A stretch of DNA of 64,000 nucleotides. Source: Nemertoderma westbladi. Lineage: Eukaryota > Animalia > Xenacoelomorpha. A program made the translations under genes and the position numbers. Positions within the stretch are counted from its first letter, which is position 1. Each line of letters starts with the position of its first letter. The notes under the pieces were generated by a model. It was not told the origin of the DNA and did not search any database. It saw only the letters and a list, made by a program, of their open reading frames with translations. The stretch covers positions 124,001 to 188,000 of the forward strand of contig JAUCBJ010006711.1 of the NCBI GenBank assembly GCA_032718475.1, in the 5' to 3' direction. Below are positions 16,888 to 64,000 of the stretch, one piece after another.

Positions 16888-17011
16888 AACGGATAAACCG
16901 GGATCCTCCCTGGATCCCGTCACAGTAATTAAACCCGTCGGTGGCACAGTAATTAAACTCAGAGCTGCCGACCTAGCTAGCTAAACTACCAGCCACCAAT
17001 CACCAAGCGAG

Positions 17012-35847: not shown

Positions 35848-35971
35848 AACGGATAAACCGGGATCCTCCCTGGATCCCGTCACAGTAATTAAACCCGTCG
35901 GTGGCACAGTAATTAAACTCAGAGCTGCCGACCTAGCTAGCTAAACTACCAGCCACCAATCACCAAGCGAG

Positions 35972-38900: not shown

Positions 38901-39835
38901 CCGGTACCAGTACAGCAGTATGACTACAGCATGCAGGGACATAACATATACCCAGGGGAGGGGGGAATTATTGCGGATAGGTGTATGGGCCCCAACATAT
39001 TAACATCAACCCCAGTACCAAAGATACCGGTGGGGGGGGGGGGGGGCAGGGTGACATTCCCCCATCACAATATCAACAATATACCCCGATAGGAGCAAGA
39101 ACAACGAGACCCTTGGATGAAAATAGGTCGTGCGACACAGAAATTTGGAGGGGGCCGCTACCCCCGATGACATATCCAAGTCAAAGGAAAGGTGGAAATA
39201 GGACAGACGGACCGCACCAGACAGGAGAAACTATACAACATCCATCGAACCCATTGGAGGCACAGGCGATGGGGATGGCCACGTTGATCGATGCGTTGAA
39301 AACGAGGATCGAGTTACCACCCGTGGAACCATTCAAATTCGATGGGAGTAGGCCGGAAGAATATCTACAGTTTCGGCGCATGTATAGTAACGAAATACTA
39401 ACAAAAAACGTGACGCAGGCGGAGTGCCTAAAATATCTGCAAGTATACACGGGAGGCCCAGCATACGATATCGTGAGGCAATACCAAGGCATAGAGGGCG
39501 GCTTCACGACAGCATGGCGGGCACTGGATAGGGAATACGGGCACCCGGCCAAGATCATCAGGCAGACACTGAGAGGCATAACATCGGGTGGCCTACAGGA
39601 TAATCCCGTTAGCATTAAGACGTTCGCTAACAAAGTCGAAAAGGCGCTAATCGTGCTGAAGACGCTAGACGCGCCATACGAACTCAACGCGTCCAACAAC
39701 ATCCACCACGATAGCGCAGGCACTACCGAACTGGCTGCGCAACAAGTGGAGGAAGATCGCTTTCTCCACTCGAGACAAGAAGGGTGTGGAACCGGGTTTA
39801 GAAGAAATGTCAAGCTTCTTAAACTACGAGGCTGA
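35972..39835 (+). pseudogene. Disrupted gag region of BEL-A copy 2
   Basis: Overlapping ORF fragments 35972, 36238, 37273, 37430, 38106, 38981; same TAG (37192) and most frameshifts shared with copy 1. Confidence 0.85.
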
Positions 39836-44444: not shown

Positions 44445-44510
44445 CAATTTATAGGTGATCCGGATGGGATGATGCAATAGGGTGACTCAATCGCTCTCCT
44501 ATTGGCTCTC
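44445..44510 (-). promoter_or_regulatory. Putative LTR promoter (CCAAT + TATA box)
   Basis: Minus strand GCCAATAGG (~44500) followed about 50 bp later by CCTATAAAT (44455-44447). Confidence 0.4.
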
Positions 44511-44866
44511 CAGTCCATGCTAGCATTAGACCAACCTGGAAGCAGTTAATCCAATAAGGAGGCCGGATTGTAGCCCTATTGCTCAAATTATTACCATATA
44601 TGGTAATGGTTCACGTCTCTGGCTGCTGAATGGCCAGGACGGCGTCCCTATGCTAGCCCTATCAAACTAATATCAGCAAGCACAAAATCCAGGGTCCGAA
44701 TAAACTCGCTACCCTGGAACTATCTACATATATCCTAATACAAAATTACGTAGGTAGGGCTACATACTATACAAAATGGATGGTTTCAAATATATGGGCG
44801 TTTTGATTTCCCTACCTAAATACCACTGCGTTATTATGCCTTATCTAAAATATCATGCTGCACAAT

Positions 44867-44950
44867 GGACTAATATTACGTACAGTATAACGGACTAATA
44901 TTGCATACTGCATAACGGACTAATATTACATACTGCATGATGACTAATAA
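44867..44950. repeat. 25-bp tandem repeat (x3.4) in the putative U3
   Basis: GGACTAATATT(A/G)C(G/A)TAC(A/T)G(T/C)ATAAC repeated. Confidence 0.8.
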
Positions 44951-45749
44951 TATGGATACAGCGCCATATACCGTAACACCGCTCCAAGGGAAATCATACA
45001 ATGTTTCCCTCCAATTGTAGAAGAGTATAAGGTGATGTATACAAAACAAAATAAATTTCTTCCAACCAATCTAAATACTTGATACTATAGGTCCTACTAT
45101 TTACAAATATTGCTATAGATATTGCATAATGAATTACATACAAATTAAATTTACAAAATATTGTCTCTCTCACTGTTTAACGATTATTACATACAAATTA
45201 AATTTACAAAATATTGTTTCTCTTTCGTTCTACTACATAATGATTACTACATACAAATCAAATATAAAATTTTGCTAGGGTAAGTGAAAGGAGTAAGCCA
45301 AACCCGCAGGTTTGTCTCCCCAATCACTTCCTTCGCCTCTCTCATAATATAAATTCCAAATAGCTCAACTAGTGTATATGAGTCTAGTCGAAAATTTCCA
45401 AATGCTACAATATACATCAGAGCGACGATGATGTATATATCTAGAGTCTGTCGCCCTGTGCTATAATGTATTATCGACCCGCTCCTGGGTTCTTTGGGCT
45501 CGCTCCTCTCTTCCGCCCCCTTCCCAGATACACTAATCTACCTCCAGTCGACTCCGTTGACTGCGTCCGTGAGGCGTCACTCCCCGGAACCGGCGACGAT
45601 GTTCCCTGAGCCCCGACAGATTCCCGGCTCGTGCTTCTTCCTCGGCCTCGTCCCAATTGTCGTGCTCCTGTGGTCGCTTCTGCCAACTCTTCCTTATGCA
45701 GTTGCACTCGCGCCTTCTCCGACGCTCCCTGCGCCTTGCGCTGCAACCT

Positions 45750-48700
45750 CTATGCTTCTATAATAGAGTGATAGTGATCGTCCTTGACTTGACGCTTGTC
45801 TTGGACCCCTCCTCCTGGTTCTTTCCGCGAGCCTTGAGCTCCAGCGGTCGTCGCTGTGGTCGCTGCGATCCTTTGTTCCTGTATCCTCTCAGCGGTCAAT
45901 GAACCCACTGGCACATGAGTCAACAAGAATTCGTTGCGGTATTGTATAGCCGCCATCCTCCAATCACCTCGCGCGCGTACCACTTTTCTAGTCTCCGTAA
46001 ATACACCCTTCGTGATGCGATCGCAAATAGCAACGAAGTTCCATGTGTACTTATTGTCCATGTTCAATTGTCTGAAGTACTCTCGAACTACGATAACTCC
46101 AGTGTTTTGTGGAAGGTCTTGAGCAGTTAGGATGAGCTCCTGATATTGTGGTAGCGATTGTAGATATGGCTCGTACGCAACATGCGATGGGTCTACCGCC
46201 CAAAACCCATATCCCGCTTTAAATGGTAACCAACGCATCTGCGCTTGAATATGGTAATCCGCCACACTCTCCCACTTGTCTAACATCTCCCGAAGTAGGT
46301 TAGCGCTATGGTTTTGAAAGGAATCATCTCGCAGCTGACATCTCGCGCTACGATGTCCCTTTACCCCACAATATCCACATTGAGAAATGAAGACGGTGCA
46401 CGTGTGAAACGAATGGTCGGTCTCATTACACCAACGACAGACTTTATGTGCCGCCTCCACTACCGCGTCGCACGACTTTAGATTGTGCCTTGTGCTGCCG
46501 CACAACTTGCACCTACGCGCTTGTGGAAACCAGGCCCTCTCGTATATGAGGTCTCCAATCGGTTTCGCACTTCCTTCCTTCCCAATGTCTAATACGATGT
46601 CGTCCTCTCCAGTCAACGGTTGTCGATCCGGAACAAAGTAAACATCCTCGCCCTTGTCCTCTATCTCCAATATTTCCTCCCGCGTTCGTTTCGGATATGT
46701 CTTCTCCACCGGAAGATCTACTCCGAACACCTCTACTAACGTTTCCGGCCAGCCCTCCTTAACAGGTCTATCAGCCTCCGAGTGGAAGGGAGTACCAAAC
46801 CCGCGGGTTTGATTCCCGAACCACTTCTCCAAAGCTTCTGGCGTCGGATATTCCATCGACGGTCGGTCTCCCAAATCTCCGATGTTCTGTCGATATACTC
46901 CTTCGAATATCGCTAATCCTCTCCTAATCATCGACGTATTCTCTAACGATTGGTTGAAGAACGGGGTTAAGAAACGCTTCATCACGTCGGATTGGATTCC
47001 CCCTTTCGAGCGAACGTATTGATCTCCTCCGAATACCAATGGATGACGCTTCAAAACTCGCGCAACGATATCCGCTAATAAACAAGTCACCGTGTTCGAC
47101 TCAAGCACCAAATAATATTGTAGCGACGCACGGGGTGGCGCGCAAATGTTCCAATACACTAACGCTTGCCGCTTGAAGTGGGATTTGAACTCCGCTCCCG
47201 GTGGCGTGTTGTATTCGCCATACGCCTCCTCATACTTCTTTTGCGTCTTTAACTTAAAGTCCCAATTATACAACAAGTGTGCTATAAAGCCCATACCAGT
47301 CTTGGCAGAGTTGGGATACTCCCTATAAATTCCAATATCCTGTGCCCATAGCAACAATAGCTTGGTGTCGACAAACGGTCTCGGCAATCTATCTTCCAGA
47401 TCAGTCATGGCGTTGAAGTCGCTCTCCAAATCGCTCTGGACTCCCGATCCCACCTTGACGTAATCTTGGTTGAGAATAGCCTCTCTAACTTTCTTTGGTA
47501 ACATCCTGGCGTCGATACGCTCCGCTCCGTGCATACCTCCTCGCCTGCATACCTCCAAAATCTGTTCCCTAGGATCCTTCCCCTTCCGATATTGTGTCGT
47601 TATGATGGGCTCCGGTCTCTCTCGATCCGCCCTCACACGCATAAACACATGAGTCACACCATCGGCCGCACGAATTTGAATACACTTGCTGGTCAAACAT
47701 TCCTGATGGGACCCTCCTTCATTGTCGTAGAACATCACCCTCCAATCCTGCAGCGATTCCTCCGTCTTCCTCCACTGACGCTGAATCTCGTCTGATGGGG
47801 TCCACATGCGCTCGATAGCCTTGTGGTCATCATATCGGGTATAAGAACCCTTCCTCCTCAGCCACGTCTGGTCTACCTCCTCGTCGTCTGGGAATGTAGC
47901 CACCGCGACCCATACCTTGATGTACTTATCCAACCATCCGAATAGCTTACTCTCCTTCCCCGGAGCTCCAATCTTATCCAACGTGTCATAATCTGTGATC
48001 TGCATTGGGACATCACGCAAGAACTTCGCGCATAAAACTTCCCGTAGACAGTCAACGTTCCAATGGTCCGCCATTCTTACCATCGGCAAGAATCGTATCG
48101 CTTCTCGCGACTCCGGATGATCTACTAATATCGCAGGTTCGGTGCCGTCGGAATAATACACCGGTCCGGGTTGAGATACGACCTGTGGAACAAATCCGGT
48201 CACTCTCCTCGTCTCCTCTTGATGTCTATCCGCGGTCTTATTATACTCCGCTATCCTGTTCTCAAATAACTCTTTCGCCTTCGCCGCTCGCTCCTCCTGC
48301 CGCAACGCGTCTATGTCGTCCTGATGCTCAGGCGTGAGGCTTCTCACTCGGTGAGGTGAAGTAAACGTAGTCCAGGGACTCGAGAGCTCCAAACCCGCGG
48401 GTTTGGTACCCGAGTCCCGCGCCGCTTCGCGCCACGCCTCTAGATCCTTGTAGGCTCGGTACAGCGAAATGGCCGCTGCCGTCTCTATCAAACTGGGTGT
48501 CGAACAGGGTTTAATCTCCGTATACGGATCTAATGTCGTAACGGTCGGCGTAATGGGTCTCGGAGGTCGCTTTCCGCTGAAGTCGATACTGATCGTCGGG
48601 TTGCTCATCGGGTAACCTCCCTCGTTGTATCTAAGGAATTGGTGAGCTGGACATCGCGTTAATATCGGTTCCGGATGTTGCTCGTCTAGTCGGTCGGGAA

Positions 48701-49178
48701 TCGCCACGTCCTGTTTATTCATGCATTCACCACACTTGTAGAAGAGCTTGTATACGCTGAAGACTTTCGGCGTCTCCTGATCCTCGCCTCGAGTCCTCCG
48801 ATACAGATGCATTCCGTCGAACTGGTCTCGGACTGCAGGTAGAGGCTCCTCATGTCGTAAATACATATTCATATGGTATAGTCGTGCGATTTCCTCGTCC
48901 GGATCTGCGCTAATGTCGCACACGTCCAAAGCGAAGTCGTAGGGATACCGCGTGCGATACTCTCTCCGCAAGACTTCCATCCGGTCCCCCAACGCTCTCA
49001 TTCTTTCTCTCCGTAATTCTTTATCATAACTTGGTTTGTACTTCCCGTTCAGCTCCATCACGGACCGCCCATGGTAGTAAACGTTAGAGTCTTTACATCC
49101 TGGTCGCGCGAATGGTAGCTCCGCCTCCTCTCTGGCAGTAAATCCTCTGCGCGGTTGCGCTCTAATATCCCTCTCCAT
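45750..49178 (-). CDS. BEL-B extra ORF: DEDDy (WRN/EXD/Mut-7-like) 3'-5' exonuclease + three CCHC zinc knuckles, 1142 aa
   Basis: ExoI MFYDNE; ExoII LPKKVREAILNQDYVKVGSGVQSD; FVDT; GMGFIAHLL; ExoIII-like W..PP...LQYYLVLE. Knuckles CKLCGSTRHNLKSC, CRWCNETDHSFHTC, CGYCGVKGHRSARC. ATG start, uninterrupted. Confidence 0.8.
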   Translation of the reverse strand: MERDIRAQPRRGFTAREEAELPFARPGCKDSNVYYHGRSVMELNGKYKPSYDKELRRERMRALGDRMEVLRREYRTRYPYDFALDVCDISADPDEEIARLYHMNMYLRHEEPLPAVRDQFDGMHLYRRTRGEDQETPKVFSVYKLFYKCGECMNKQDVAIPDRLDEQHPEPILTRCPAHQFLRYNEGGYPMSNPTISIDFSGKRPPRPITPTVTTLDPYTEIKPCSTPSLIETAAAISLYRAYKDLEAWREAARDSGTKPAGLELSSPWTTFTSPHRVRSLTPEHQDDIDALRQEERAAKAKELFENRIAEYNKTADRHQEETRRVTGFVPQVVSQPGPVYYSDGTEPAILVDHPESREAIRFLPMVRMADHWNVDCLREVLCAKFLRDVPMQITDYDTLDKIGAPGKESKLFGWLDKYIKVWVAVATFPDDEEVDQTWLRRKGSYTRYDDHKAIERMWTPSDEIQRQWRKTEESLQDWRVMFYDNEGGSHQECLTSKCIQIRAADGVTHVFMRVRADRERPEPIITTQYRKGKDPREQILEVCRRGGMHGAERIDARMLPKKVREAILNQDYVKVGSGVQSDLESDFNAMTDLEDRLPRPFVDTKLLLLWAQDIGIYREYPNSAKTGMGFIAHLLYNWDFKLKTQKKYEEAYGEYNTPPGAEFKSHFKRQALVYWNICAPPRASLQYYLVLESNTVTCLLADIVARVLKRHPLVFGGDQYVRSKGGIQSDVMKRFLTPFFNQSLENTSMIRRGLAIFEGVYRQNIGDLGDRPSMEYPTPEALEKWFGNQTRGFGTPFHSEADRPVKEGWPETLVEVFGVDLPVEKTYPKRTREEILEIEDKGEDVYFVPDRQPLTGEDDIVLDIGKEGSAKPIGDLIYERAWFPQARRCKLCGSTRHNLKSCDAVVEAAHKVCRWCNETDHSFHTCTVFISQCGYCGVKGHRSARCQLRDDSFQNHSANLLREMLDKWESVADYHIQAQMRWLPFKAGYGFWAVDPSHVAYEPYLQSLPQYQELILTAQDLPQNTGVIVVREYFRQLNMDNKYTWNFVAICDRITKGVFTETRKVVRARGDWRMAAIQYRNEFLLTHVPVGSLTAERIQEQRIAATTATTAGAQGSRKEPGGGVQDKRQVKDDHYHSIIEA

Positions 49179-49964: not shown

Positions 49965-52900
49965 CTAACTCTGTTTTGAGACAGGAGACAAATTATAATC
50001 TCCCGTCTCGATACGTGTCTCCTCTAATAACACAATATCTTGGACCGGTCGGTCCAAGGTGTGTAAACCATTAGTTTTACACTTTTTTGGGTGCGGACAC
50101 TTGCACCTAATTTTCACAGTGACTGTGCGCACTATGTTTTGCACGTCTGGGTGTGTGTGCAAGATCACTCCAGTCTCCCAATACTTTCTCTTGACAATGG
50201 GTTCGGTTATCAATACGTAGTCTCCCTTTTGGAGACTCCGAACCGTTTTGTACCACTTTGTTCTGGTGGATATGGTGGGAAGATAGTATTCCCGCCAATA
50301 TTCCCAGAATTTGTACGCGACTAATTGAGTCATTTTCCAGCTCTTACGACTATATAGGTCGGCACTAATGGGTTCTGATGCCGGCACAAGAAATGCTGGA
50401 CTCTGCATTAGCAAATGATTCGGCGTTAATGCAACACCGTCTGGCAACATAGCTATCGGCCTCGAGTTTAGGGTATGCTCGATTTCAATGAAAGCTGTGA
50501 CCAGTTCGTCGTCGGTAAGTTGTTTGTTCACAGGCAATGTTTTGGCAATGGCCTGTTTTACAGAGCGAACCAAACGCTCCCAAATTCCTCCTCTCCAAGG
50601 ACTTTCTGGAGTATTAAATCTCCATTCTACTCGTTGCGGCAAAAGTGCTGCAGAAATTTCCTTATTCTGTGCTGCTTTATGAGCCGCGTTCAACTCGCTA
50701 TTCCCTCCGACAAAGTTTGTACCCTTGTCAGAGTAGAACGCCTTTACTAGTCCTCTCCTGGCCATAAATCTCTTTAAGGCCAGGAGCAGAGATTTGGTCG
50801 ACATGTCTGCCACACGCTCGATATGTATGGCTCTACTCGCCATACATGTCAGTAGCAGACCCCATCGCTTGTGGGTCAGCCGTCCACTCTTTGCTTCAAT
50901 CGGACCAAAACAGTCCACCCCTGTATTCGTAAAGGGTGGGTCATATGCCTGCACTCTCGCTTCCGGGAGTTCAGCCATCTCCTGTTCCAATACTCTGGCG
51001 TTCACCCTCTTGCAAACCAGACAGGCGTCATACATAGTGCCGACTGCCCTGCTTGGCTGCAATAGAATGAATCGCTGTCTCGCTGCCGACAGACAGTGTA
51101 ACTTTCCCGCGTGATGCAACCTCTTATGTATATCCCATAGAATCGCTCTTTGCAATTCTATCGGGTAACTAGGGATTATCACTGGGAACCGAAACTGTGA
51201 GTTTATGTCGACAGTCTGGATTCTCGATCTATGACAAATCAAACCCTTATGGATTAATGGACTCCATTTTCTAAGGGGTTTATAGAGAACTGGTCGATGA
51301 GCCGATAATAGATGGAATTCTTTCGGGAAGGCACACATTTGATAATGTTTCAAATGCTTTAATTCCGCTTGATCAATCTCATCCTCTGTCAGAGGTTGTT
51401 TCAATTTCCGAATTCGCTCACTATTGGTGCTCAATGGTTCTCTCAAATGTTTTGAATGTTTTAAACAAAGGTACGAAACGTATCGGCTTAACCACGCAGG
51501 TCTTTTACAAATTGTCAGCCAAGAGGCAGACGAATTTAGTAATTTGTCATAAATACTGCATGACTCTAATGCCAGCGACGGTTGTCCGCTAACTAATGGA
51601 CGTTTCGAATCCAAACCCGCAGGTTTGGAAACCAAAGGATCCATTGTGTCGGTCATTTTCTGTCCGTCACTTACCAATTGTGACTCCGGTTTAGTCTGTA
51701 AGGGCGGTTTTATGTCATAACTTACCCTTCCTGACCTAATAGTCACGTAAGTCTGTTGGTCTGACAGGTCTCCGGGCCGCTCCAATGACTCTTCAGGCTG
51801 CTCCAATGACTCTTCAGGCCGCTCCAATGACTTAAGTTTGGCTTTAGACTTCGACTTAGAGACTTTCTCCACTTTGACTTCTGCATCTTCAGGCATCGGA
51901 TTGGTCACTATCTTTAGTCGCTCTGGCCAATGTTCCTGTGTCCTCGTTAGAAAATCAGGTCCATGCAACCAAAACTCCTGCGACTCTTCCTGACAGAATT
52001 CCGCCGGCATTGCACCTCTCGAAGTTATGTCGGCCGGGTTCAACACTCCCGGACAATGTCTCCATTGTTCCTTCGTCGAAAAGTCAACGATCTGAGCGCG
52101 TCTATTGGCCACAAATGTCTTTAGTGCAATATTGTCGGCCGCAATGTATACTAACACCAAGGATGCGTCCGTCCAATAGAATAAGGTCAATGTCGTGTCT
52201 AACTCCTCAGTTATTTGCTTACTTACCTCGACCGAAACTACAGCCGCCTGTAACTCTGCACGAGGGACAGTCATGTATTTGACCGGCATTGTCTTTGATC
52301 TAGAAGTCACAAAAGCCGTCTCAAACTTGTCCTGACTTACCTCTCGGCGAAGGTAGGCTACCATACCAAAACCGGTGTCACTTGCGTCACTAAATAGGTG
52401 GAGCTCTAAATCAGCTGGGAATACCAGCTGATTCGGAAGGTAGGAACGGGGTACATCTATATTTTTCAATAGATGCAACTCGGCTTCCCACTCCCTCCAC
52501 TGCTTTGCATGTATAGGAGATATTGGTTCGTCCCACTCTAAGTCGGACAACCAAATTTTCCTCATGCACGCTCGTGCCTGTAATATAACCGGACTGATAA
52601 AGTTCATCGGGTCAAATAGTCTACTCAATGTCGATAAGCAAATCCTCTTAGTCAAAACTTTGTCTGGGCTACTGGGCTCAAATCTAACTCTTACCTGGAA
52701 CTTATCTGAGTTCGGGTTCCAAGCGAGTCCCAGTACTCGCGCCATGGGAATTGGTTCTACCCCCAATTCTATGTCTCCGCTCCCGCGATCCTTTACCGGG
52801 AACGACTCTAATAGGGCCTCCGAGTTCGTAGTGAACTTGGTCAGAGGAAATCCCCCTGTAGCCAAGCACTCCTGCAGGCCGTGAGCCACTTCTATGGCTT

Positions 52901-55900
52901 GTTCCGCTGTGTCCTTGGACACCAATCCGTCGTCCATATAGAAGTTTCTCAATATAGACTCGATTACTTCTACTGGATACTTACCAATCTGGGCTGTTGC
53001 CGTTTTCTTTAAAACGAACAGCGTGCCATTCGGACTATCGCGGGCGCCAAATATCCTAACGTACATCTGGTATGTAACCACTGGGCCGGATAAGTCTTCA
53101 TTCTCAAACCAGAGAAATCGAAGGCTATCCTGGTCTGCCTTACAGGCTCTTACCTGGTGGAACATCGCCTCGATGTCACAAGTAAATGCGAATCGCCGCT
53201 GTCTAAAACGCAACAGTATTCCGATCAAATAGTTATTCAGGTTGGGACCATCCATCAACTCTGAATTCAGGGACATACCTCTATAGACTGCTGCGCAGTC
53301 GTTGACTACTCGGACTTTGTCTGGCTTGTCAGGGTGAGTCACATAGTGGTGTGGAAGGTAATAAGTCTGGTCTGTCACCAAGTCAGGGTCCTCTACCTTC
53401 CCAGCAAATCCCTTGGCGAAATAGTTGTTGATCTGGGCGCAATACTTCTCCCTAATGTCCGGATTCTTCAACAACCGAGCCCTTACTCCGTTCAATCTTT
53501 TCAAGGCTAAGTTGTAGTTGTTCTCCAACTTAGGTGGTTGTCGACGCCACAACATTCCAACTTCAAAATGTCCAGTCGGTAGTAGACGTATGGTATCTTC
53601 CATCATCTCCAACGACCGTTTCTCATCAGTAGACATGGCTAGGTCATATCCACCGGGTTCCATTGCGTCCCTATCCAGCCATTCGACGGTTCTAGCTCCT
53701 GTCTCGAGGTCCTGGCGTATCAATTCCTTTTGTAATTCCTCCTCACTGTATTGGAAAATGTCTAGGTCTCGAGATTTAGCCACTTGACCCTCCACTATGT
53801 CTGTATAAGTCAAAACGTTAGTCAAATAGGTAGCGTGGGCCGCTGAACCAGACCCACGGGTCTGATAACAGTAGTCCTCGGGTTCACTATCTGTCCGGTC
53901 ATTATGAAGTGGTTCCGACAACCTAACATTATCGGGAATCAACTCCTCATCTGACTCGCTAAAGTCACTATAGTGGTCAATACAGGTTCTCCTAAACTCG
54001 TCTATGTCTGGTGGTTTTACTAACGGTGGTTGAGCTATAGGCTGTAATTCGTCGTATCTATTCATTGGCTTGTCGCCACCTGTAAACTCATAAGACATGG
54101 GTACTCGTGTATACCAACCTAGTATGGTCCTATGGGCATGTGGTCCATTGACATGCGGCTCAGCTGGTCTCGTTTCCCATATCTGGTGTGCGATCAGCTG
54201 TTCTGCACCAATCAACATAGAAACATTCCTATAACCTACCTGGTGTCTGGGTATCCTGAGCTTGTCAAAATACTCCTGTGCTATGGGACTCATCGGCGGC
54301 ACCTTACCTAACTGCCTGCCGAATCCCTTCATAGCTAGACACTTAAATCCGTCCAATGGCAAAGCTTTCCGTTCTTGTCGAGTATGCTGGTCTCTCGGAA
54401 GTAGGGAATCTAGTTCCACCGAAATTCTGTGTCCCTTGAGGTCACCTACCCCATGCATAGACTTCAACTCTATTTGGATCTCCTCGGCGTCCTGGAAGCT
54501 AGAAACAGCTCTCGCCACTTCCTCGTCGATATACGATAATGTGGACGCAGTGTCCAACATCACATATATTCGCTTCGATCCCTTATCGCTGGTGAGTTTC
54601 ACCGGAATCACGCTAAATATTTCCGACGTGGCCGATGATAAATACGTCCGCGCGCTGGTCGATGAACTATCCGCGGTGAAACCTTGGCAGGTCACTTCTC
54701 TCGCGCTCGACTCGCCATCCTCGTCCGACGAACCTGGTTGGTAACCATCGTCCTGGATGCCAGTGTACGTATTCCTCCTTATCGATACGGGTTCTTTGCT
54801 CCCCTTCCTTTGAGGATTTCGCTGTAAGTAACGGTCCGTTGGGGTATGGAAATCCGCATGTAGCAACTTGTGATGTAGTCTGCCGCATTCCATGCATCCG
54901 TCCTTGCTGTTCGGGCACTGCCGCCGTACATGTCCTGGCGCAAGACAAGCCCAACAGGTGTCCAACGTCCGCACTTGAACTCTTCTCTGTTCTGAATTTA
55001 ATTCCTTGAACCGTCTGCAACTATCTAACTTATGGTCGTCAGATCTTACCTCCTTTAGTAAACAGTATTGGCAACCTACAAATCCATCCGGCAACTCCTG
55101 TTGCTTTAACCTAGGTCTATCTAACCGCTCACCTGACCATACTCGCGAGTCTGATCTAAAGGCTGGGGTATTCGAATTATATCTGTCTACTGAGTTATAA
55201 GTCACAGTGGTCCTGTCATCGTCAAAACTTACCATAGACTTACCGGTAACAGGTTTAGACTCTCTCATATTCTCTTCTGAGAAGTTTGATTTCATCTCTG
55301 CTACTGCGTCTGTGGCTATCATGTCATGAATATGCTGAAGTGTCAATACTTTACCTTGGCCCTCCAACTTATTCTCTAATTTGCGCCATTTCTGTCGGTA
55401 ACGCATGTTTAGACGTCTTATTACGCTCTTTAAAACTTCGGCGTGATCACCATGATGAGGTAGATTCACCGTCCTCAAGATGTCCAATGCGTTCGAAATA
55501 GCGTTCGCTAAATTCAACAGCTCAAACGGAGTTGTAATCCTTCCGCCCTTACCCAAGTCTTCTACTATCGACTGCGCCATCTTGGTTTTATTCCCGTAGA
55601 TGTCGCTAAGCGTCTTCATTGCTAACTCGAATGCTCTTTCGTTGCCGACGAAATTATCAGCAATGGCTCTAGGTTCTCGATGGAGCATCTGAAGCAAATA
55701 GTTGAACTTCTCGTTGGGAGTAAAGGTGCTGTTGGTTAGCTGCTCGTCGACATAGGTTTTAAAGGTCCTCCAGTGCTTGTGGTTGCCCATAAACTTCTGG
55801 GGTTGTTGCGTCGGCAGTCCTTGCCTAGCAGCAAACTTACCTATGTCCCTAAGGGTTGCGTCGTTCCGGGTTAACAAATGGTTTAGTTCCGCAGGGTTGT

Positions 55901-57668
55901 TAAGTCTGGTCCTTTCCCGGTGGTTCCAACTTACCTGCTCCGCGTTGGTCCTTCTTTCCTTATAGTTTCGGGACTTCTGACGTCTCATTTCTTCCTCTTC
56001 ATCGCTTGACTCGGTGTCAGTCCTTAGCGCTCGCGATGATTTGCGCGCCGAGGCCCTGACCCAAGCATCCTGAATAAATCTTTCTGCCGAATTTTCGAAA
56101 TTGGGATTATGGATATTCGGGACAGGCGTCCTTACCTGAGGTCTATGTGGTATAGTTTCCTCCGATATGCGTACTCGTTGACTAGGCTGGACTTTATCTA
56201 ACTCAGGCCTGCTGGGATTAGAATTACTTCTTACCTGGGCTGCTTCCTTTAACCGTAGGTTGCTAAGCATGTCCGTTATAGGTTGGATGTGCGGCGATAT
56301 AGCTTGCGCTAAACTAGCACTTAACTCATCCCTCGTAATAAATTCCTGGCTAGGGTTCTGTTGTATAGTCGGCTCTATCTGAGTAATCCGCTGTCTCTCA
56401 TATGATCCCTCTTCCGGTTTAACCCGGAAGTTCTCCGTCGAACTGGGTCGGCGCTCCGTCCGCGTATTCCAAACCCTCGGGTTCGGTTCGCCAAGTACTC
56501 GTTCCGTCGGAGTTTCTTCTCTAAATTCTCCGTTCTCGCGTTCGATATATAGTGGTGCGGTGTTCCGATGACGTAGATCCTGAGCGATGGGTGAAACACT
56601 AATACCAACTGGCGTGCGATATGTAGAGAATGGTTTAGCGATCCGTGTACTCGTAATAGCTGGACCGAGTATAGGAATTCTGGTCGTCGTTGACTCGCGT
56701 ATAGTCGGAGTTCTCGCTTCCTGTTCGGCCTTCTGCAGTGCGAACAGTTCTCGCAACTCTGTCCCCACACTCGCCCCACATTCTTCGAGCATTCGCATCC
56801 CCTTCTCGGCGATTTCGTTCGCCTTCCTAGTCCGTTCTTCGCTCTCTAAACTTAATCTCGCACTTTCCAACTGCGCCAGTTTACGCTCTTCTTCTTCCCT
56901 CGCTCGTCTCGCTGCGCTCTCTTCTTCTACTCGCGACCTTTCTTCATACAATGCGCGTCTTCTTTTCTCGATCTCGAGTTCGCGTTCCTTGCGTCCGCGT
57001 TCGAGTTGAAGCTCGCGCTCCTTCTGTTCACGATCGAGTTTCTTGCGCTCGCGTTCGGCTTGGAGTTCGCGTTTCTTCGCTTCCTGTTCGCATTCAAGTT
57101 GGAGTTCGCGTTCTCTCTGTTCGCGTTCGAGTTGGAGTTCGCGTTTCTTCGCTTCCCGCTCGCATTCAAGTTGGAGTTCGCGTTCTCTCTGTTCGCGTTC
57201 GAGTTCCTCGCGCTCGCGCTCGGCTTGGAGTTCGCGTTCCCTTTGCTCGCGTTCCGCTCGCTCGCGCTTACTTATCTCTTCCAACTCTCGTAACTCTGCG
57301 TCCAACTTACGTGTGCGCTCCCGTTCCCGCTCGGCTTCCTTCCGTGCTTCCTGTGCACGCAAAACTTCCGCCTGCTGTTCGTCTAGTCGGCGTCTTCTCT
57401 CCTCCGCCGAGTTGTGAGAAACAAGGGATCTAGCACATATTACCTTACCTCGCGCGTGACTAACCTGGGAATCGCCGCTGTCTCTAGATGCATCGTCGGT
57501 TGGAGTCAACGTCCTCTGTTGGATGTTCTCCGTCGTCGGTAGCACCTGACCTGGTACCACCACTCCATTCTGCATCAGCCAGCTAGTAACTTCCCTCTGA
57601 TACCGGCGCTCCTCTTTATCCTGCGTCTCTTCTCGCTCCACTAAGTCTCTCAACTCTGCGTCACTCAC
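49965..57668 (-). CDS. BEL-B Gag-Pol polyprotein (main part, 2567 aa)
   Basis: Coiled coil; PQKFMGNHKHWRTF gag; Cys arrays CWACLAPGHVRRQC and CMECGRLHHKLLH; LDTAS protease; YLPHH, DIEAMFHQV, FYMDDG RT; LHLFSDAS and NPADITSRG RNase H; HHAG..CLVC, GVDCFGP, YSDKGTNF, GIWERLVRSVK integrase. Confidence 0.97.
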   Translation of the reverse strand: MSDAELRDLVEREETQDKEERRYQREVTSWLMQNGVVVPGQVLPTTENIQQRTLTPTDDASRDSGDSQVSHARGKVICARSLVSHNSAEERRRRLDEQQAEVLRAQEARKEAERERERTRKLDAELRELEEISKRERAEREQRERELQAEREREELEREQRERELQLECEREAKKRELQLEREQRERELQLECEQEAKKRELQAERERKKLDREQKERELQLERGRKERELEIEKRRRALYEERSRVEEESAARRAREEEERKLAQLESARLSLESEERTRKANEIAEKGMRMLEECGASVGTELRELFALQKAEQEARTPTIRESTTTRIPILGPAITSTRIAKPFSTYRTPVGISVSPIAQDLRHRNTAPLYIERENGEFREETPTERVLGEPNPRVWNTRTERRPSSTENFRVKPEEGSYERQRITQIEPTIQQNPSQEFITRDELSASLAQAISPHIQPITDMLSNLRLKEAAQVRSNSNPSRPELDKVQPSQRVRISEETIPHRPQVRTPVPNIHNPNFENSAERFIQDAWVRASARKSSRALRTDTESSDEEEEMRRQKSRNYKERRTNAEQVSWNHRERTRLNNPAELNHLLTRNDATLRDIGKFAARQGLPTQQPQKFMGNHKHWRTFKTYVDEQLTNSTFTPNEKFNYLLQMLHREPRAIADNFVGNERAFELAMKTLSDIYGNKTKMAQSIVEDLGKGGRITTPFELLNLANAISNALDILRTVNLPHHGDHAEVLKSVIRRLNMRYRQKWRKLENKLEGQGKVLTLQHIHDMIATDAVAEMKSNFSEENMRESKPVTGKSMVSFDDDRTTVTYNSVDRYNSNTPAFRSDSRVWSGERLDRPRLKQQELPDGFVGCQYCLLKEVRSDDHKLDSCRRFKELNSEQRRVQVRTLDTCWACLAPGHVRRQCPNSKDGCMECGRLHHKLLHADFHTPTDRYLQRNPQRKGSKEPVSIRRNTYTGIQDDGYQPGSSDEDGESSAREVTCQGFTADSSSTSARTYLSSATSEIFSVIPVKLTSDKGSKRIYVMLDTASTLSYIDEEVARAVSSFQDAEEIQIELKSMHGVGDLKGHRISVELDSLLPRDQHTRQERKALPLDGFKCLAMKGFGRQLGKVPPMSPIAQEYFDKLRIPRHQVGYRNVSMLIGAEQLIAHQIWETRPAEPHVNGPHAHRTILGWYTRVPMSYEFTGGDKPMNRYDELQPIAQPPLVKPPDIDEFRRTCIDHYSDFSESDEELIPDNVRLSEPLHNDRTDSEPEDYCYQTRGSGSAAHATYLTNVLTYTDIVEGQVAKSRDLDIFQYSEEELQKELIRQDLETGARTVEWLDRDAMEPGGYDLAMSTDEKRSLEMMEDTIRLLPTGHFEVGMLWRRQPPKLENNYNLALKRLNGVRARLLKNPDIREKYCAQINNYFAKGFAGKVEDPDLVTDQTYYLPHHYVTHPDKPDKVRVVNDCAAVYRGMSLNSELMDGPNLNNYLIGILLRFRQRRFAFTCDIEAMFHQVRACKADQDSLRFLWFENEDLSGPVVTYQMYVRIFGARDSPNGTLFVLKKTATAQIGKYPVEVIESILRNFYMDDGLVSKDTAEQAIEVAHGLQECLATGGFPLTKFTTNSEALLESFPVKDRGSGDIELGVEPIPMARVLGLAWNPNSDKFQVRVRFEPSSPDKVLTKRICLSTLSRLFDPMNFISPVILQARACMRKIWLSDLEWDEPISPIHAKQWREWEAELHLLKNIDVPRSYLPNQLVFPADLELHLFSDASDTGFGMVAYLRREVSQDKFETAFVTSRSKTMPVKYMTVPRAELQAAVVSVEVSKQITEELDTTLTLFYWTDASLVLVYIAADNIALKTFVANRRAQIVDFSTKEQWRHCPGVLNPADITSRGAMPAEFCQEESQEFWLHGPDFLTRTQEHWPERLKIVTNPMPEDAEVKVEKVSKSKSKAKLKSLERPEESLEQPEESLERPGDLSDQQTYVTIRSGRVSYDIKPPLQTKPESQLVSDGQKMTDTMDPLVSKPAGLDSKRPLVSGQPSLALESCSIYDKLLNSSASWLTICKRPAWLSRYVSYLCLKHSKHLREPLSTNSERIRKLKQPLTEDEIDQAELKHLKHYQMCAFPKEFHLLSAHRPVLYKPLRKWSPLIHKGLICHRSRIQTVDINSQFRFPVIIPSYPIELQRAILWDIHKRLHHAGKLHCLSAARQRFILLQPSRAVGTMYDACLVCKRVNARVLEQEMAELPEARVQAYDPPFTNTGVDCFGPIEAKSGRLTHKRWGLLLTCMASRAIHIERVADMSTKSLLLALKRFMARRGLVKAFYSDKGTNFVGGNSELNAAHKAAQNKEISAALLPQRVEWRFNTPESPWRGGIWERLVRSVKQAIAKTLPVNKQLTDDELVTAFIEIEHTLNSRPIAMLPDGVALTPNHLLMQSPAFLVPASEPISADLYSRKSWKMTQLVAYKFWEYWREYYLPTISTRTKWYKTVRSLQKGDYVLITEPIVKRKYWETGVILHTHPDVQNIVRTVTVKIRCKCPHPKKCKTNGLHTLDRPVQDIVLLEETRIETGDYNLSPVSKQS

Positions 57669-58414
57669 CTGAGTCGCCTGCGCTTGTGATGCCCATAGCA
57701 GCCAGTTCTCTGTCCTAACTCGTCGGATCGCTCCGATAACTCGCGGTGCTCCAACAAGGCTGCTAAAACCCTGTCGTAAATCCTCGTCGCCACGTCGCTC
57801 GACTGAGACTCTACTGCCTTCTTCGCTAGGACTGCAAGCTCCTCCGTCTGCTTGAATAACGCTGAGTTATATCCTCTTCTAATCTCTGCTAACTCTACCC
57901 TCCCGATGTTGGCTGAGTCGGCCAACATTTTTCTTACCTTGTCCGCCGTCCGAGTTATATGTCCGGCATGCGCGCGAAGTTTCTTCTTTATCGCGATATC
58001 AAGTTCTCTATCACTTACCTGACTTACACTCGGTGGACTTGAAGGATTATTTCGGGAACTACGGGTACTCCTTACAGCCGTTGGGACCACGGCACTTACC
58101 ATACCCACAGGTCTGGAAACCGGGCTCCGGGCTCTCGCTTCTGCTACACTATCCTCCCTATCACTCACCTCTGTCCGGGCTGCCGTACAGTCCTTCCTTA
58201 CAGTAGCGGTAGGGGATCCTAATACTATTACTTGAGGTTGCTGTTCTTCCTCACTAGTCACTGTCTCGTCCTCCTGTTCACTTACGTCAGCGTCACTCGC
58301 TGCGTCGTCATAGTCGGCATTGTCGTCAACAGTAATATTGACGCTATCGTCAGTCGGCGGTCCAGCCGCCGTCTCGTAGCTGTCCTCTAGTGCCTCCTTG
58401 TCTGAGACACTCAT
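57665..58414 (-). CDS. N-terminal Gag segment of BEL-B (249 aa), out of frame with the main ORF
   Basis: ATG-initiated acidic/helical ORF overlapping the GTG-called start of the 2567-aa ORF by 4 nt; the main ORF is in the -1 frame. Confidence 0.7.
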   Translation of the reverse strand: MSVSDKEALEDSYETAAGPPTDDSVNITVDDNADYDDAASDADVSEQEDETVTSEEEQQPQVIVLGSPTATVRKDCTAARTEVSDREDSVAEARARSPVSRPVGMVSAVVPTAVRSTRSSRNNPSSPPSVSQVSDRELDIAIKKKLRAHAGHITRTADKVRKMLADSANIGRVELAEIRRGYNSALFKQTEELAVLAKKAVESQSSDVATRIYDRVLAALLEHRELSERSDELGQRTGCYGHHKRRRLR

Positions 58415-59705: not shown

Positions 59706-61370
59706 TGATAAACAACCACGACCTCTATACTAACAGCAGAACTGTTGAACAGACCAATACCCGTTAATATCCTTCTGCCAACCTAATAAGTTCTCGTCTA
59801 ACCAATAAGACACAAAGACTGCTCTACTGTTAAGTAAAGGGGCTCAGGAGCGTGATATTACTAAATTGTAAGGGTTGCTAAATACAAAACCGCTACTTAC
59901 CGTTAGATGGCGCTAATCTGCCGTCCGCTAATATATTTACTAATTTTACACAACTCCTGCAAAATCGCTTGTTCCTTTCTCTACCGATTGCTCAATAGAG
60001 AGCTAACTGTTCGAATCTATGAGCCACACAGGAATAACCAAAACAATAAACCCGAGTCGGCTCCCTAAGCTTACTTAAGACGAGTGCGAGAGGCCTTGCA
60101 CTCAGAGTATTCTTACGCCTAATTCTATCACTATTAAAGCACGCTATTACCTACGTCTTTTCTAATCGCGAATACTGGGGGTTCTCTAACGTAATGTGTG
60201 AATGCGAGAATATTTAAAATATCAAAAATGGTACAGTAATTGTCTCTCGTGGATAGTACCACTCTGGGTCTAAAATTGCCTGCAGCTGGCTTTAGGCCAG
60301 CAAATCACTAGCGTTTCGTGCGTACCGAATAGTGCGTTCTAGCTGATTGTCCGCTAATGCAAATAACCGCTCAGCGTGAATAGTTTACAGTACTCTAATT
60401 ATTACTTTAGCTACTCTCCGCTATGCTGCGTACTAATTCTTAATTTTACTAATCAATTACAGTCACAAATATTTAACAGCGTACTAATTACTAAGAGTTC
60501 CAGAATACGTGATTCTAATTTATCACGCAACAGGTTTCGCTAGTAATAGCCTAAATTGCCGTATTACTTTGACCTAATCAGTAACTAATTGTTGTAACTA
60601 AGAAATAGAAATCAATCAAAGAGAAAAGAGCGCCTACCTAAACATTCACAATCATAGGCACACTTCAGTAACACACCAATCAGCGTCAGCAATCACAGTT
60701 CGCAATTATGCAGTTAACTACTGTATAGCCCACAATTATGCGACTCACTATTCGTACTACACGCTCAACGTTCGAAACGTTGTGATACGTGCAGGCCTCT
60801 CCCGGGTACATATAGGACTCCTAACTAACCTGATTCCCGCCCCCCTAATACTAAATAGAGACGAAACCTGGATCATCAGCCCCCTAATTACCGTACCGGC
60901 GATTGGTCTGCGTACCACAGCGTTAACTTCCCGACCGCAACGGTGACCCCACGCCAGCGTTGCTCGCTTTGAATCCTCCGCTCTCCCTTAGTCGCCCAAC
61001 CCCCCGATGTGCCCACCGCCCGCTGGCGCCTTAGCCCTCCATTACGCTAATAGCTACCGTAGCGGCGCATGCAAATCACAAAGTCTGACAGTCTCAGAAA
61101 TCCCTTAGGATTATTGCGCAGGAAAGAATCACATAGAACCATTAATCAAAAGTAGAAATCATAGTTCAGTTGTAATTAGCAGTAATCGAAGGAATTAATT
61201 GAGAAACACAAGCAAGAGTAATCGCACTAGCAAATCATTTCAAGAAATTAATCAAATTGCAAAAATACTCTAAAATCCGTCAAAATTGAATAGAGACAGC
61301 TCAGCAAGTACAACAGCAGTGAAGGTTGAATCGATCGATAGGCTCTACCGGCACACCGCCAATTTATAGG
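59706..61370 (-). repeat. 5' LTR of BEL-B, truncated at its outer end
   Basis: Direct repeat of 42791-44455 (offset 16915); outer end lacks the TG/CA terminus and a TSD. Confidence 0.9.
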
Positions 61371-61529
61371 GGCACCTTAGTGGAGTTAGAGAAGAGTTTA
61401 GTCATCCAAGATTTGGACTGAGGACGGTGGGATTGAGACGCCCTTCCCACACAAAAAATTTAAAATAAAAAAAAAAATAAAATAATAGTACATAATAGGT
61501 ACGCAGTTAGTAGGCAGAAGTTAGCCAGT

Positions 61530-61905
61530 AAGAGGTACGTAGTACCTAGAGTTAGTTAGTTAAGAGGTACGTAGTACCTAGAGTTAGTTAGTTAGTTAGG
61601 AGGTACGAGAGAGTTAGAGGGTACGTAGTACCGTTAGTTAGAGAGTTAGAGGGTACATAGTACCGTTAGTTAGAGAGTTAGAGGGTACGTAGTACCATTA
61701 GTTGGAGAGTTAGAGGGTACGTAGTACCGTTAGTTAGAGAGTTAGAGGGTACGTAGTACCGTTAGTTAGAGAGTTAGAGGGTACGTAGTACCATTAGTTA
61801 GAGAGTTAGAGGGTACGTAGTACCGTTAGTTAGAGAGTTAGAGGGTACATAGTACCGTTAGTTAGAGAAGAGTTAGAGTTAGAGGGTACGTAGTACCATT
61901 AGTAA
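61530..61905. repeat. 32-bp minisatellite (~8 core + ~3 variant units)
   Basis: Unit GAGAGTTAGAGGGTACGTAGTACCGTTAGTTA (e.g. 61641, 61673) with internal dyad GGTAC-GTA-GTACC. Confidence 0.95.
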
Positions 61906-62390
61906 GAGAGAGAGTAAGAGGTAGAAGGGTATATACGATATAGATATTAGTTACCAGTTAGTAGTGAGAGGGGGGCATATGAGTACAGCTGGGTAAATTG
62001 TGTGGCCACGCGATGCATACTGCTGTACTGTACAGGCCCACAGAGTAGGCCAGAATGTGGATTAGAGAATAGAATAATCCATAGGCAATAGTAAGTAGTA
62101 GGACAGTAGAATTAAAACTAAACTAAAATAAATAGAATAGGGCTGAAAGTTACAAATTATGGCAACACTAGGAAAGTTATTCTGGAACATAATAAAAGTA
62201 ACTGACAGAAATTAAAATTAGGGTGTATTTACTAGCTTCAGAATTAATTAGTAATAATTTAGGCAAAAAGGGCGCAGTTGAGTAAGGAATAGGCCATTAT
62301 CGGACCGTACAGAACATCTTAGATACATCACTCATCTGTATTGCGCCTTGGTAAGGCACCACCTTACAGATGAGCAAGTGAGTGTTCGGA

Positions 62391-64000
62391 ATGGCGAGCA
62401 AATTGATCAGAAAGAGAAAGGCGGAGTCAGGAGGAAAGGAGATACTGGTGGATTTCACCGAGAGGCATCCGGAAGAGAAGATTAGAGGATACTACGAGAG
62501 GTTGGAAAGGGGTCACGCGGCACGAGCGCTGCAGGATCACTTCCAGGAGATGCACGAACAGCGGCTGGTCGGGACCTACGGGATGCCGTCGCTGGACAAT
62601 GCGATCTTCCAACACTTCCACTACGTGGTGAAAGGGGACGAGGCGAAGTTCGGGATTCCGAAGTACCTGAGGGAATCACCGAGGAAGGATTGGAAGAGAT
62701 TCATAGAGTCCGTCAACAGGGGAGGATACATGATCCTAGACGACGAGGGAACCGTGGAAGACGAGGAGGGTTCGAGACGAGGATCGGCGGGGTCGGCCAG
62801 GACCATACTCCTACATTTGGCCGCGCCAAATGGGGACATCTTCTTATTCGATCTAGGAACGTACAGGAAGAAGGACGGGCCGAAATTAAACCGGTTGCCG
62901 AAAGCGGTACAAGTCTTGGTAAGAGAGAAGTCGACGACGAAAGTAGGATCGGCGATTCACGAGGACGCAGAGAGAATCATCGGTCCGGACGCCACCAACC
63001 TCCTGGATATGCAGAAGGTCTTCATGGCTATGACGGCACCGGATGGGTTGGGGGTAGTCGGAAACACAGGCCAATGCGGGGTGGTGGCAATGGGCCAACT
63101 ATTGGGGCTCGTATGCCACAAACCGATGGACTGGGGGAAGTTCAGGGAAGAATACGGAGCAGAACTAGTGAACTCGCTAAAGTGGGGAGCGAGACCGGGA
63201 AAGCAAGAGGTATATCAATTCCGCAGAGGAGCGATAAAGGTATATCAGAAGCGATATATCCTGCAGGAAGATTGGATGATGATAAGTTTGCTAAACTTAT
63301 TTTTGACCGTGGTTATCGAGAGGGAACCAGCGGCATTTCTGTTATCGGGATCACCCCTAAGCTACAGGAGAGCCTTTAAAATGGCCTTCGACGGTCTGGT
63401 AGACCACCCGGGGCTGAAGGGCGAGTCGGTATACTACAACAGCCGACATCTGGTAGACGGGGAGACAGATACGCCGTATCAGAGATGGGAGCAGCTAGTG
63501 ACGGATAGACGAGAAGCAAAGCGACTGGAAGAAGTCGCTAGACGGGAGAGGATAGAAGCAGAGGAGAGGGAAGAAGAGGCCAGGACGCAGAGTTACGGCT
63601 TCGAGGAACAGGCAGGCTTAGACGAACTTCATTGGACTTCATCAGGGAGTTCGGGGGAGTCTCTAGGGCGAGAATTGGGATGGACAGTGGGATCGCCGAA
63701 ACAGTCAACGTCGGGGTTGCAAGCGATGCCCATACCAGCGGGGGCCGAAGGTGACCAACCGCCAAGGAAGTTAAGGGAGCTAGAGGGATGGAGAGCTACG
63801 GGCGAGAGCCAAGGCGGGAAGGGACATAGTGGATCCATCGGGATACCGGGGTTGGAGCCACTGCCAGAGGAGGAGGAGGATGACGACGAGTTCGGAGGGG
63901 TGCCGCCCATCGAGAGGATTGGCCACTCGGACACGGACTGGGTTGGCGGGAGGGTGGTGACGGCCAGTGGGGCGAGGGCCTTCTGGAACAGATCCGGCAA
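62391..64000 (+). CDS. Extra ORF with DEDDy-type 3'-5' exonuclease domain, >536 aa, runs off the window (absent from ORF track)
   Basis: Manual translation from ATG 62391 is open to the end: MASKLIRKRK...YMILDDEG...LLHLAAPNGDIFLFDL...LPKAVQVLVREKSTTKVGSAIHED...LLDMQKV...GVVAMGQLL...YQKRYILQE. Confidence 0.82.
   Translation, partial: MASKLIRKRKAESGGKEILVDFTERHPEEKIRGYYERLERGHAARALQDHFQEMHEQRLVGTYGMPSLDNAIFQHFHYVVKGDEAKFGIPKYLRESPRKDWKRFIESVNRGGYMILDDEGTVEDEEGSRRGSAGSARTILLHLAAPNGDIFLFDLGTYRKKDGPKLNRLPKAVQVLVREKSTTKVGSAIHEDAERIIGPDATNLLDMQKVFMAMTAPDGLGVVGNTGQCGVVAMGQLLGLVCHKPMDWGKFREEYGAELVNSLKWGARPGKQEVYQFRRGAIKVYQKRYILQEDWMMISLLNLFLTVVIEREPAAFLLSGSPLSYRRAFKMAFDGLVDHPGLKGESVYYNSRHLVDGETDTPYQRWEQLVTDRREAKRLEEVARRERIEAEEREEEARTQSYGFEEQAGLDELHWTSSGSSGESLGRELGWTVGSPKQSTSGLQAMPIPAGAEGDQPPRKLRELEGWRATGESQGGKGHSGSIGIPGLEPLPEEEEDDDEFGGVPPIERIGHSDTDWVGGRVVTASGARAFWNRSG

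Follow-up and report, generated by a model that had tools for sequence, protein, structure and literature searches.

Some retrotransposons of the BEL/Pao group (Belpaoviridae), such as roo, carry an env gene in the slot of the third gene. The extra genes of long terminal repeat (LTR) retrotransposons are few, and most of them are of unproven function. In bdelloid rotifers, the elements Juno, Vesta and Athena/Terminon bear a third open reading frame (ORF3) of the DEDDy exonuclease type with a DEED motif, the function of which is left open in the excerpts of the original report used here (Rodriguez, Kenefick, Arkhipova 2017, PMC5408684); the same ORF3 appears again in excerpts of PMC6431247, PMC5718144 and PMC6338049, and an excerpt of PMC9587614 describes a DEDDh nuclease in KolobokD DNA transposons. 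The stretch analyzed here, 64,000 nt of contig JAUCBJ010006711.1 of Nemertoderma westbladi (the window), contains two BEL/Pao elements recognised by Pfam, BEL-A on the forward (+) strand and BEL-B on the reverse (-) strand, and at its right end an open reading frame (ORF), ORF-C, which was shown by profile comparison to encode a homologue of the accessory protein of BEL-B. On balance, ORF-C is read as a probable accessory gene of BEL-A, the product of which would be an RNA-binding enzyme that likely trims RNA 3' ends for the element.

ORF-C and its relationship to the BEL-B accessory protein

ORF-C starts with an ATG at 62391 and is stop-free to 63998, where the end of the window cuts it. Its features, and those of the BEL-B gene with which it was compared, are as follows (aa, amino acids).

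62391..64000, + strand: ORF-C, accessory-type gene, 536 aa to the window end, 3' end open
62649..63428, + strand: predicted DEDDy-type 3'-5' exonuclease domain, about residues 87-346 (AlphaFold2 model, DEDDy structure matches at model residues 17-276, Foldseek, ESM Atlas)
62739..62747, + strand: ExoI motif, D117-x-E119 (family alignment, EXD2 columns)
62964..62966, + strand: ExoII Asp192, within KVGSAIHED (column aligned to EXD2 Asp171)
63255..63272, + strand: ExoIII motif, Y289-x-x-x-E293, then D294 (gap-free block; column of EXD2 Tyr242/Asp246, also of WRN)
63429..64000, + strand: acidic low-complexity linker, with no zinc knuckle before the window end
45750..49178, - strand: BEL-B accessory ORF, 1142 aa, with D485, E487, D583, Y689 and E693; its three Cys/His knuckles begin at residue 890, and its C-terminal block is conserved

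The preliminary description had presented ORF-C as an unlisted ORF encoding an old homologue of the BEL-B exonuclease, and had quoted eight pairs of shared motifs, a lack of DNA similarity, N-termini of greatly different length and the same YxxxE variant in both proteins; all of this was borne out. The eight motif pairs are present and occupy the same columns of a ten-protein alignment, the variant being YILQE in ORF-C (63255-63269) and YLVLE in the BEL-B protein (47114-47100), with Glu in the column of the ExoIII Asp, and no DNA similarity between the two ORFs was found by blastn. ExoI lies at residue 117 of ORF-C, at residue 485 of the BEL-B protein and at residues 57-161 of six outside relatives; since these six and ORF-C have ExoI near the start, the long N-terminus of the BEL-B protein is the odd one. 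This extension of about 430 residues (49178-47900, -), with a few Cys/His near positions 150-180, falls outside the best-scoring stretches of all eight outside relatives and has no Pfam match. As to age, the two exonucleases share 23% identity, compared with 31% for the reverse transcriptase (RT)-RNase H regions of BEL-A and BEL-B.

When ORF-C was compared directly with the BEL-B accessory protein by BLASTP, the 23% identity extended over 166 aa with an E value of 3e-4, which is weak when taken alone, and when the 230-aa core was shuffled 2000 times, one shuffle reached the real score. Outside homologues (P0001-P0008) were found with the BEL-B protein alone among 1.84 billion representatives, with E values of 3.7e-11 to 5e-4. 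A profile built from these eight proteins only matched ORF-C with an E value of 5.5e-17 (58 bits) in a set of 1357 sequences; the highest score reached by 1000 shuffles was 4.3 bits, and no other frame of the window besides ORF-C and the BEL-B accessory ORF was matched. The best pairwise matches of ORF-C were P0008 (E 4e-12) and P0002 (E 2e-10), both better than its match to the BEL-B protein.

Apart from one 'hypothetical protein', P0001-P0008 are nameless. The BEL-B protein and all eight relatives are built from the same parts: a domain resembling exonucleases, a linker that varies, Cys/His knuckles and a C-terminal block that is conserved. By these alignments ORF-C falls into a family of ten or more proteins, as yet without a name, in which the order of exonuclease, linker and knuckles is fixed. 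Lin28 (E 1.4e-6) and retroviral nucleocapsids were matched by the knuckle portion of the family profile. No Pfam family was found for ORF-C or the BEL-B accessory protein, and one of nine family domains matched PF01612, at E 0.047. Word-indexed protein searches, which covered limited lengths and so give no evidence of absence, returned nothing for ORF-C (7990 candidates) or for the BEL-B exonuclease region (3485 candidates), and P0002 only for the family alignment. No locus was found for ORF-C or P0005 in metagenome contigs, nor for P0008 in viral contigs. The module may define a BEL clade, as the preliminary description had proposed, but the BEL-B copy is the sole family member with a shown BEL/Pao context, and the link of ORF-C to BEL-A is indirect.

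Contigs from four public DNA runs were compared with positions 61000-64000, which gave 10380 (run X1), 3843, 3950 and 31 records; the X1 contigs match this 3-kb stretch with 85-100% likeness, and this dense coverage indicates that ORF-C is a multi-copy repeat family. Variants were taken from the best-supported 40 of 290 places, a restriction that counts against leaning heavily on them, and were split by their share in run X1. Within this set, 30 variants lie inside ORF-C, 22 of them at third codon positions. Among 20 sites segregating between copies, 18 are third-position (binomial p 2e-7, with sites taken as independent), and this bias points to purifying selection on the ORF-C family; at the 10 sites nearly fixed against the present copy, 6 differences are at first or second positions, and this copy appears, from these differences, to be drifting after insertion. 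None of the variants listed alters a catalytic residue, and the one in the Glu293 codon is at the third base and keeps Glu. The earlier claim that the module is selected thus holds at the level of the repeat family, and the open frame beside a broken BEL-A gag, to which the preliminary description had also pointed, says little, as BEL-A pol is also open for more than 1000 codons and the copy is apparently drifting.

It is very improbable that ORF-C represents either a host gene or an open frame arisen by chance in purine-rich DNA. In favor of such a reading, third positions in the ORF-C region are poor in T, so that stops are rare, and a stop-free frame of 297 codons (62486-63379, +) overlaps the exonuclease domain. 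A chance frame is refuted by the profile match given above, and a host gene or chance frame is further opposed by the 10380 X1 contigs of a multi-copy repeat, by the lack of an intron across the 536 codons and by the retrotransposon-rich 416-nt satellite surroundings. The overlapping frame itself has no ATG near its start, and one as long was seen in 4 of 1000 synonymous-codon shuffles; because the third-position variants of ORF-C are first positions in this frame, it does not look selected as a protein.

Predicted fold, active site and function

An AlphaFold2 model of ORF-C residues 71-370 was built with the ten-row alignment (predicted local distance difference test, pLDDT, 65.8; predicted template modelling score, pTM, 0.72); folding without an alignment gave a pLDDT of 33.5 only. 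The best structure match of the model was Nibbler (Z 14.0, root-mean-square deviation (rmsd) 3.5, 198 residues aligned), followed among others by WRN (Z 12.8, rmsd 2.9, 169 aligned, the lowest rmsd among the top 20), RNase D (Z 12.5), NrnC-type nucleases and polymerase exonuclease domains (Z 11.7-13.1). Of 48161 chains, 42 reached a Z of at least 8, and every one of the top 20 has an exonuclease fold of the DEDD superfamily. Foldseek placed T. brucei RNase D at the top (E 3.5e-6) and gave 55 PDB matches at E of 0.001 or less, all the matches listed belonging to the DEDD superfamily. The ESM Atlas leads were PF01612 clusters for both proteins (0.93 for ORF-C, with Pfam on 34% of members, and 0.91 for the BEL-B protein, with Pfam on 50%), and a single-sequence PDB search gave nothing meaningful. 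In profile comparison, the family matched EXD2 with E 1.4e-5 as a whole and E 1.1e-6 for the domain alone, with weaker matches to WRN and Egalitarian. D117, E119, D192 and Y289 fall in the columns of EXD2 Asp108, Glu110, Asp171 and Tyr242, and Glu293 in that of Asp246, according to the catalytic residue numbering given in an excerpt of PMC6648332. In agreement with the preliminary description, which had called the protein a homologous DEDDy-type exonuclease, ORF-C is predicted from the model and these columns to have a DEDDy-type 3'-5' exonuclease fold with Glu in the last metal-ligand position. Because Glu293 stands in place of the ExoIII Asp, ORF-C is filed as a variant and not as a canonical DEDDy member. 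The neighboring D294 was considered as the true ExoIII Asp and was ruled out, since the block is gap-free and the D294 column is occupied by A, G, N or S in the relatives.

The ExoIII column holds Glu in ORF-C, the BEL-B protein, P0002 and P0008 and Asp in P0003-P0007, which makes four Glu rows and five Asp rows among the 9 aligned domains, and P0001 is without the motif. The residue after the ExoIII acid co-varies with it, being N, S or D after Glu and A or G after Asp. ExoII Asp192 is invariant in 9 of 9 rows, the ExoIII Tyr is found in 8 of 9, and the four Glu-type proteins, with 21-25% identity to ORF-C, all keep D-x-E, the ExoII Asp and the Tyr. In a tree of nine domains (without P0001), the four Glu proteins form one side of a branch with weak support (71/81), and 6 of 500 label shuffles were as clustered as this group; when P0001 was added it fell inside the Glu group, which was then not one side of a branch (approximately unbiased (AU) test, p 0.32). 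The two trees neither establish nor reject the group, and a single origin of the Glu form is plausible. The 'DEDE' subfamily that had been suggested earlier stands with respect to the Glu in the ExoIII Asp column of both window proteins, but it is a sub-group and does not describe the whole family, since Glu occurs in 4 of the 10 members, Asp in 5 and neither in the motif-less P0001. In P0001, where the ExoI Glu and ExoIII are lost, the knuckle plus C-terminal module is carried twice.

Judged by the model and the conserved residues, the ORF-C protein is rather likely to be catalytically active. As a separately encoded protein it would bind RNA through zinc knuckles, which for ORF-C are expected past 64000, and would shorten 3' ends by hydrolysis in the 3'-5' direction with two metal ions, the mechanism of Nibbler, WRN or RNase D, the longer Glu side chain being accommodated by the changed next residue. 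If the protein is active, its substrate is probably RNA, with the RNA or primer of the element and the small RNAs of host silencing as about evenly placed candidates.

Several observations weigh against an active RNA-trimming enzyme. The ExoIII part of the match, taken alone, amounts to 1.4 bits with EXD2 and 0.8 bits with WRN, although in the expected register; Egalitarian (Z 11.3) and Exd1 (Z 11.4) also match the model; and the loss of catalytic residues in P0001 means that the family tolerates inactive members. Furthermore, no knuckle is found in the 247 residues of ORF-C between Tyr289 and the window end, and the first knuckle of the relatives, at 157-277 residues after the ExoIII Tyr, comes earlier than 247 in 6 of 8 measured; given this range, ORF-C reaches the window end before the farthest known knuckle position.

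Egalitarian and Exd1 are non-catalytic or weakly catalytic RNA binders, and the Glu variant might likewise be a nuclease that is weak or disabled and serves, in the manner of Egalitarian/EXD1, as an adaptor or decoy that binds element RNA or small RNAs without cutting them. We consider such an adaptor unlikely. It would agree with the presence of these two proteins among the structural matches, with a last metal ligand that is not the canonical Asp and with P0001, which is without catalytic residues. Dead domains, though, usually lose catalytic residues in varied ways, and the four Glu-type proteins retain D-x-E, the ExoII Asp and the Tyr, the replacement always being a carboxylate. The Klenow D501E variant is said to retain substantial activity. 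A further point in favor of the adaptor is that the Tyr242-Asp246 geometry of EXD2 is described as decisive for activity in the excerpt of PMC6648332.

A catalytic protein might also act on DNA, cleaning or proofreading the 3' ends of complementary DNA (cDNA) in the course of reverse transcription or ahead of integration, in the way of WRN or a polymerase proofreading domain, which is quite unlikely in our assessment. Such a role would fit the rmsd of WRN and the Z scores of the polymerase exonucleases given above, and EXD2 and WRN are the nearest in sequence to the family profile. Against it, the two best structure matches are Nibbler, a small-RNA trimmer, though within about 1 Z unit of DNA enzymes; the knuckles joined to the domain are similar to those of RNA binders (Lin28 and nucleocapsids); and the top Foldseek match, T. 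brucei RNase D, also pairs a DEDD domain with Cys-Cys-His-Cys (CCHC) fingers. The near-tied structure matches of the model do not themselves tell the substrate.

More tentatively, the active RNA enzyme could belong to an old, undescribed BEL/Pao lineage with a D-E-D-E exonuclease-knuckle protein in the env slot, which trims and disables the PIWI-interacting RNAs (piRNAs) or small interfering RNAs (siRNAs) of the host or makes the RT primer of the element itself, the latter option being raised by the fact that neither BEL-A nor BEL-B shows a standard tRNA primer-binding site. In the first case, if true, the transposon would encode a suppressor of silencing that is based on the Nibbler fold.

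BEL-A, BEL-B and the owner of ORF-C

The remaining features of the two elements, and of the sequence between BEL-B and ORF-C, are given below.

35356..42790, + strand: BEL-A, presumed 5' LTR, gag in several frames, pol to RNase H; ends at BEL-B, no integrase
42791..45000, - strand: BEL-B 3' LTR, 2210 nt, TG...CA, preceded by a polypurine tract (45012-45001)
49965..58414, - strand: BEL-B gag-pol in two overlapping frames (DUF1759, zinc knuckle, Peptidase_A17, integrase, DUF5641)
59706..61370, - strand: BEL-B 5' LTR, without the first 545 nt relative to the 3' LTR
61371..61421, + strand: short frame of 16 sense codons ending in a stop, adjoining the truncated LTR on its right side; may be the end of an upstream gene
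61422..62390, + strand: non-coding spacer; contains a tandem array of 32-nt units (61529-61935) and, at 61966-61981, a purine tract with TG after it

BEL-B is, by its domains and repeats, a BEL/Pao LTR retrotransposon. Pfam recognised DUF1759 (1.1e-8), Peptidase_A17 (1.3e-38), the integrase zinc finger (7.4e-5), rve (0.005) and DUF5641 (1.6e-16), with the integrase placed after RNase H, and the order is pol, a 790-nt spacer, the accessory ORF in the env slot and the 3' LTR. The LTR copies form a direct repeat of 1665 nt (42791-44455 and 59706-61370) with 3 differences (99.8%), and the insertion of BEL-B is therefore recent. BEL-A carries DUF1759 and Peptidase_A17 (Pfam), and its pol frame ends at 42790, just after RNase H. 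The end of its LTR (35356-35847) was taken from an earlier reading, and no second LTR confirms it.

The right flank of BEL-B repeats the layout of BEL-B itself, in that 16 codons with their stop are followed by a spacer of 970 nt and then by ORF-C, which is on the same strand as BEL-A. In synonymous codon usage, ORF-C is nearer to BEL-A pol than to BEL-B pol (mean log ratio +0.111, standard error (s.e.) 0.018), and by the same measure the BEL-B accessory ORF is nearer to the pol of BEL-B (-0.060, s.e. 0.017); the third-position T content is 0.086 in ORF-C, 0.120 in BEL-A pol and 0.232 in BEL-B pol. Two X5 contigs stop matching at 42791 and have other flanks. BEL-B would have inserted into BEL-A pol at 42790, and a later deletion would have removed the first 545 nt of the BEL-B 5' LTR along with the integrase region next to it, so that the spacer and ORF-C remained; insertion followed by deletion is the simplest history. 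On this sequence evidence, BEL-A is a fairly likely owner of ORF-C, another BEL/Pao family a possible but doubtful one and some other mobile element an improbable one.

Ownership by BEL-A is weakened by several findings at the junction. Apart from that of BEL-B, no integrase was found in the window, nor anything that connects ORF-C physically to BEL-A, and the stretch that would join them is not bridged by any contig; X5 contigs cover 61869-62041 and 62025-62697, an 809-nt X5 contig tracks BEL-A pol to 42775 and then departs from the window, and another X5 contig joins the window at 61368 with 62 different letters on its left flank. No target-site duplication was found around BEL-B, one end of which is deleted. 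The codon test is coarse, as its control gave +0.002 (s.e. 0.029) for a held-out half of BEL-A pol and -0.143 for BEL-B pol; it separates A-like from B-like usage and is compatible with a third, purine-rich element.

ORF-C may be the accessory gene of such a third element, whether from another BEL/Pao family or of the Gypsy, DIRS or Penelope-like type, and may have come to lie beside BEL-B through deletion or nesting, as cargo shared between element types, which we hold to be rather unlikely. No link to BEL-A survives at the junction, the comparison of the presumed BEL-A LTR with 61371-64000 is not significant (best E 0.056), and DEDDy ORFs are shared between LTR and Penelope-like elements in bdelloid rotifers, as stated in the excerpt of PMC5408684. 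On the other side, ORF-C shares its strand and codon usage with BEL-A, the only homologue with a known context sits in a BEL/Pao element of the same window, and the 23% identity of the exonucleases fits the 31% of the BEL-A and BEL-B RT-RNase H regions. Contig depth in runs X1 and X3, which is alike for ORF-C and BEL-A pol and unlike that of BEL-B, was not used, because depth cannot rank genes and the thresholds differed.

Between BEL-B and ORF-C, the unit of the 32-nt array, GTTAGAGAG-like, resembles short motifs in the BEL-B 5' leader (best E 0.01). G-rich purine tracts are present in both spacers, at 61966-61981 (+) and at about 49315-49285 (-), some 410 and 110 nt before the accessory ATG, respectively, and may serve as an internal polypurine tract or belong to a promoter; as a candidate LTR start, the purine tract and TG at 61966-61981 match neither LTR of the window. 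No TGG start was found after the presumed BEL-A 5' LTR (35848-35890, +) or after the BEL-B 5' LTR (59660-59705, -). Self-priming was rejected at the level of complementarity between the post-LTR sequence and the LTR of the same element, the longest complements of 7 nt in BEL-B and 6 nt in BEL-A being reached by 388 of 500 and 284 of 500 shuffles. The BEL-B post-LTR sequence is repeated about 100 nt further on, and BEL-B gag starts in a separate frame (58414-57665) that overlaps the long ORF.

The window as a whole is an animal-type stretch of 416-nt satellite with 33% G+C that carries retrotransposon insertions. Within the satellite there is a segmental duplication of 14.4 kb (6789-21161 and 25742-40122, 96% overall), which includes a truncated second copy of BEL-A (16396-21161) that is 99.4% identical to 35356-40122. 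An AT-rich 2.2-kb island at 4610-6790, with short internal repeats and no long ORF, breaks the array and is possibly a non-autonomous DNA element.

Comparison with described systems

The predicted ORF-C domain resembles WRN, EXD2, Nibbler (Mut-7) and RNase D (PF01612) in its fold, in the D-x-E, D and Y residues and in the KVG..I..D block of ExoII; unlike these cellular DEDDy enzymes, it has the ExoIII Glu, shares 9-17% identity with them, falls below the Pfam threshold and is borne by a mobile element. A parallel in domain pairing is T. brucei RNase D (PDB 7c42-7c4c), which combines DEDD with CCHC fingers and the finger region of which matches the family profile (E 6.7e-5); it is a protist host gene with 13-17% identity, and the pairing was probably reached separately. 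BEL-B resembles roo-type BEL/Pao elements in its set of gag-pol domains and in having a further gene that lies between pol and the 3' LTR, but this gene encodes an exonuclease with zinc knuckles and not a fusion glycoprotein.

In the literature covered, no exonuclease was found described in a BEL/Pao element and no YxxxE variant; this held for the excerpts of PMC9587614, PMC6431247, PMC5718144, PMC6338049, PMC3391268, PMC5029228 and PMC7968707, with Repbase and subscription journals outside the scope, so that a prior annotation is possible. Like Juno and Vesta, as far as the excerpts of PMC5408684 describe them, BEL-B, and probably BEL-A, has a predicted stand-alone DEDDy gene behind pol in an LTR retrotransposon, with an altered pattern of acids, and for the bdelloid ORF3 a role in 3'-end processing or silencing is proposed there. 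The bdelloid motif is DEED, whereas here it is D-E-D-E, a distinction drawn by description only, and the same excerpts mention a Cys-His-Cys motif in two ORFs and no C-terminal triple knuckle. The window shows DEDDy cargo in a BEL/Pao element, in two versions that are 23% alike. As Asp-type and Glu-type natural members of the family exist side by side, unaltered proteins suffice for comparing the activity, the substrate and what the Glu changes, and the question of what the exonucleases of retroelements do becomes directly testable. In comparison with known systems, DEDDy cargo in other retrotransposons was known already; the BEL/Pao host group, the domain layout and the active-site pattern appear to be new.

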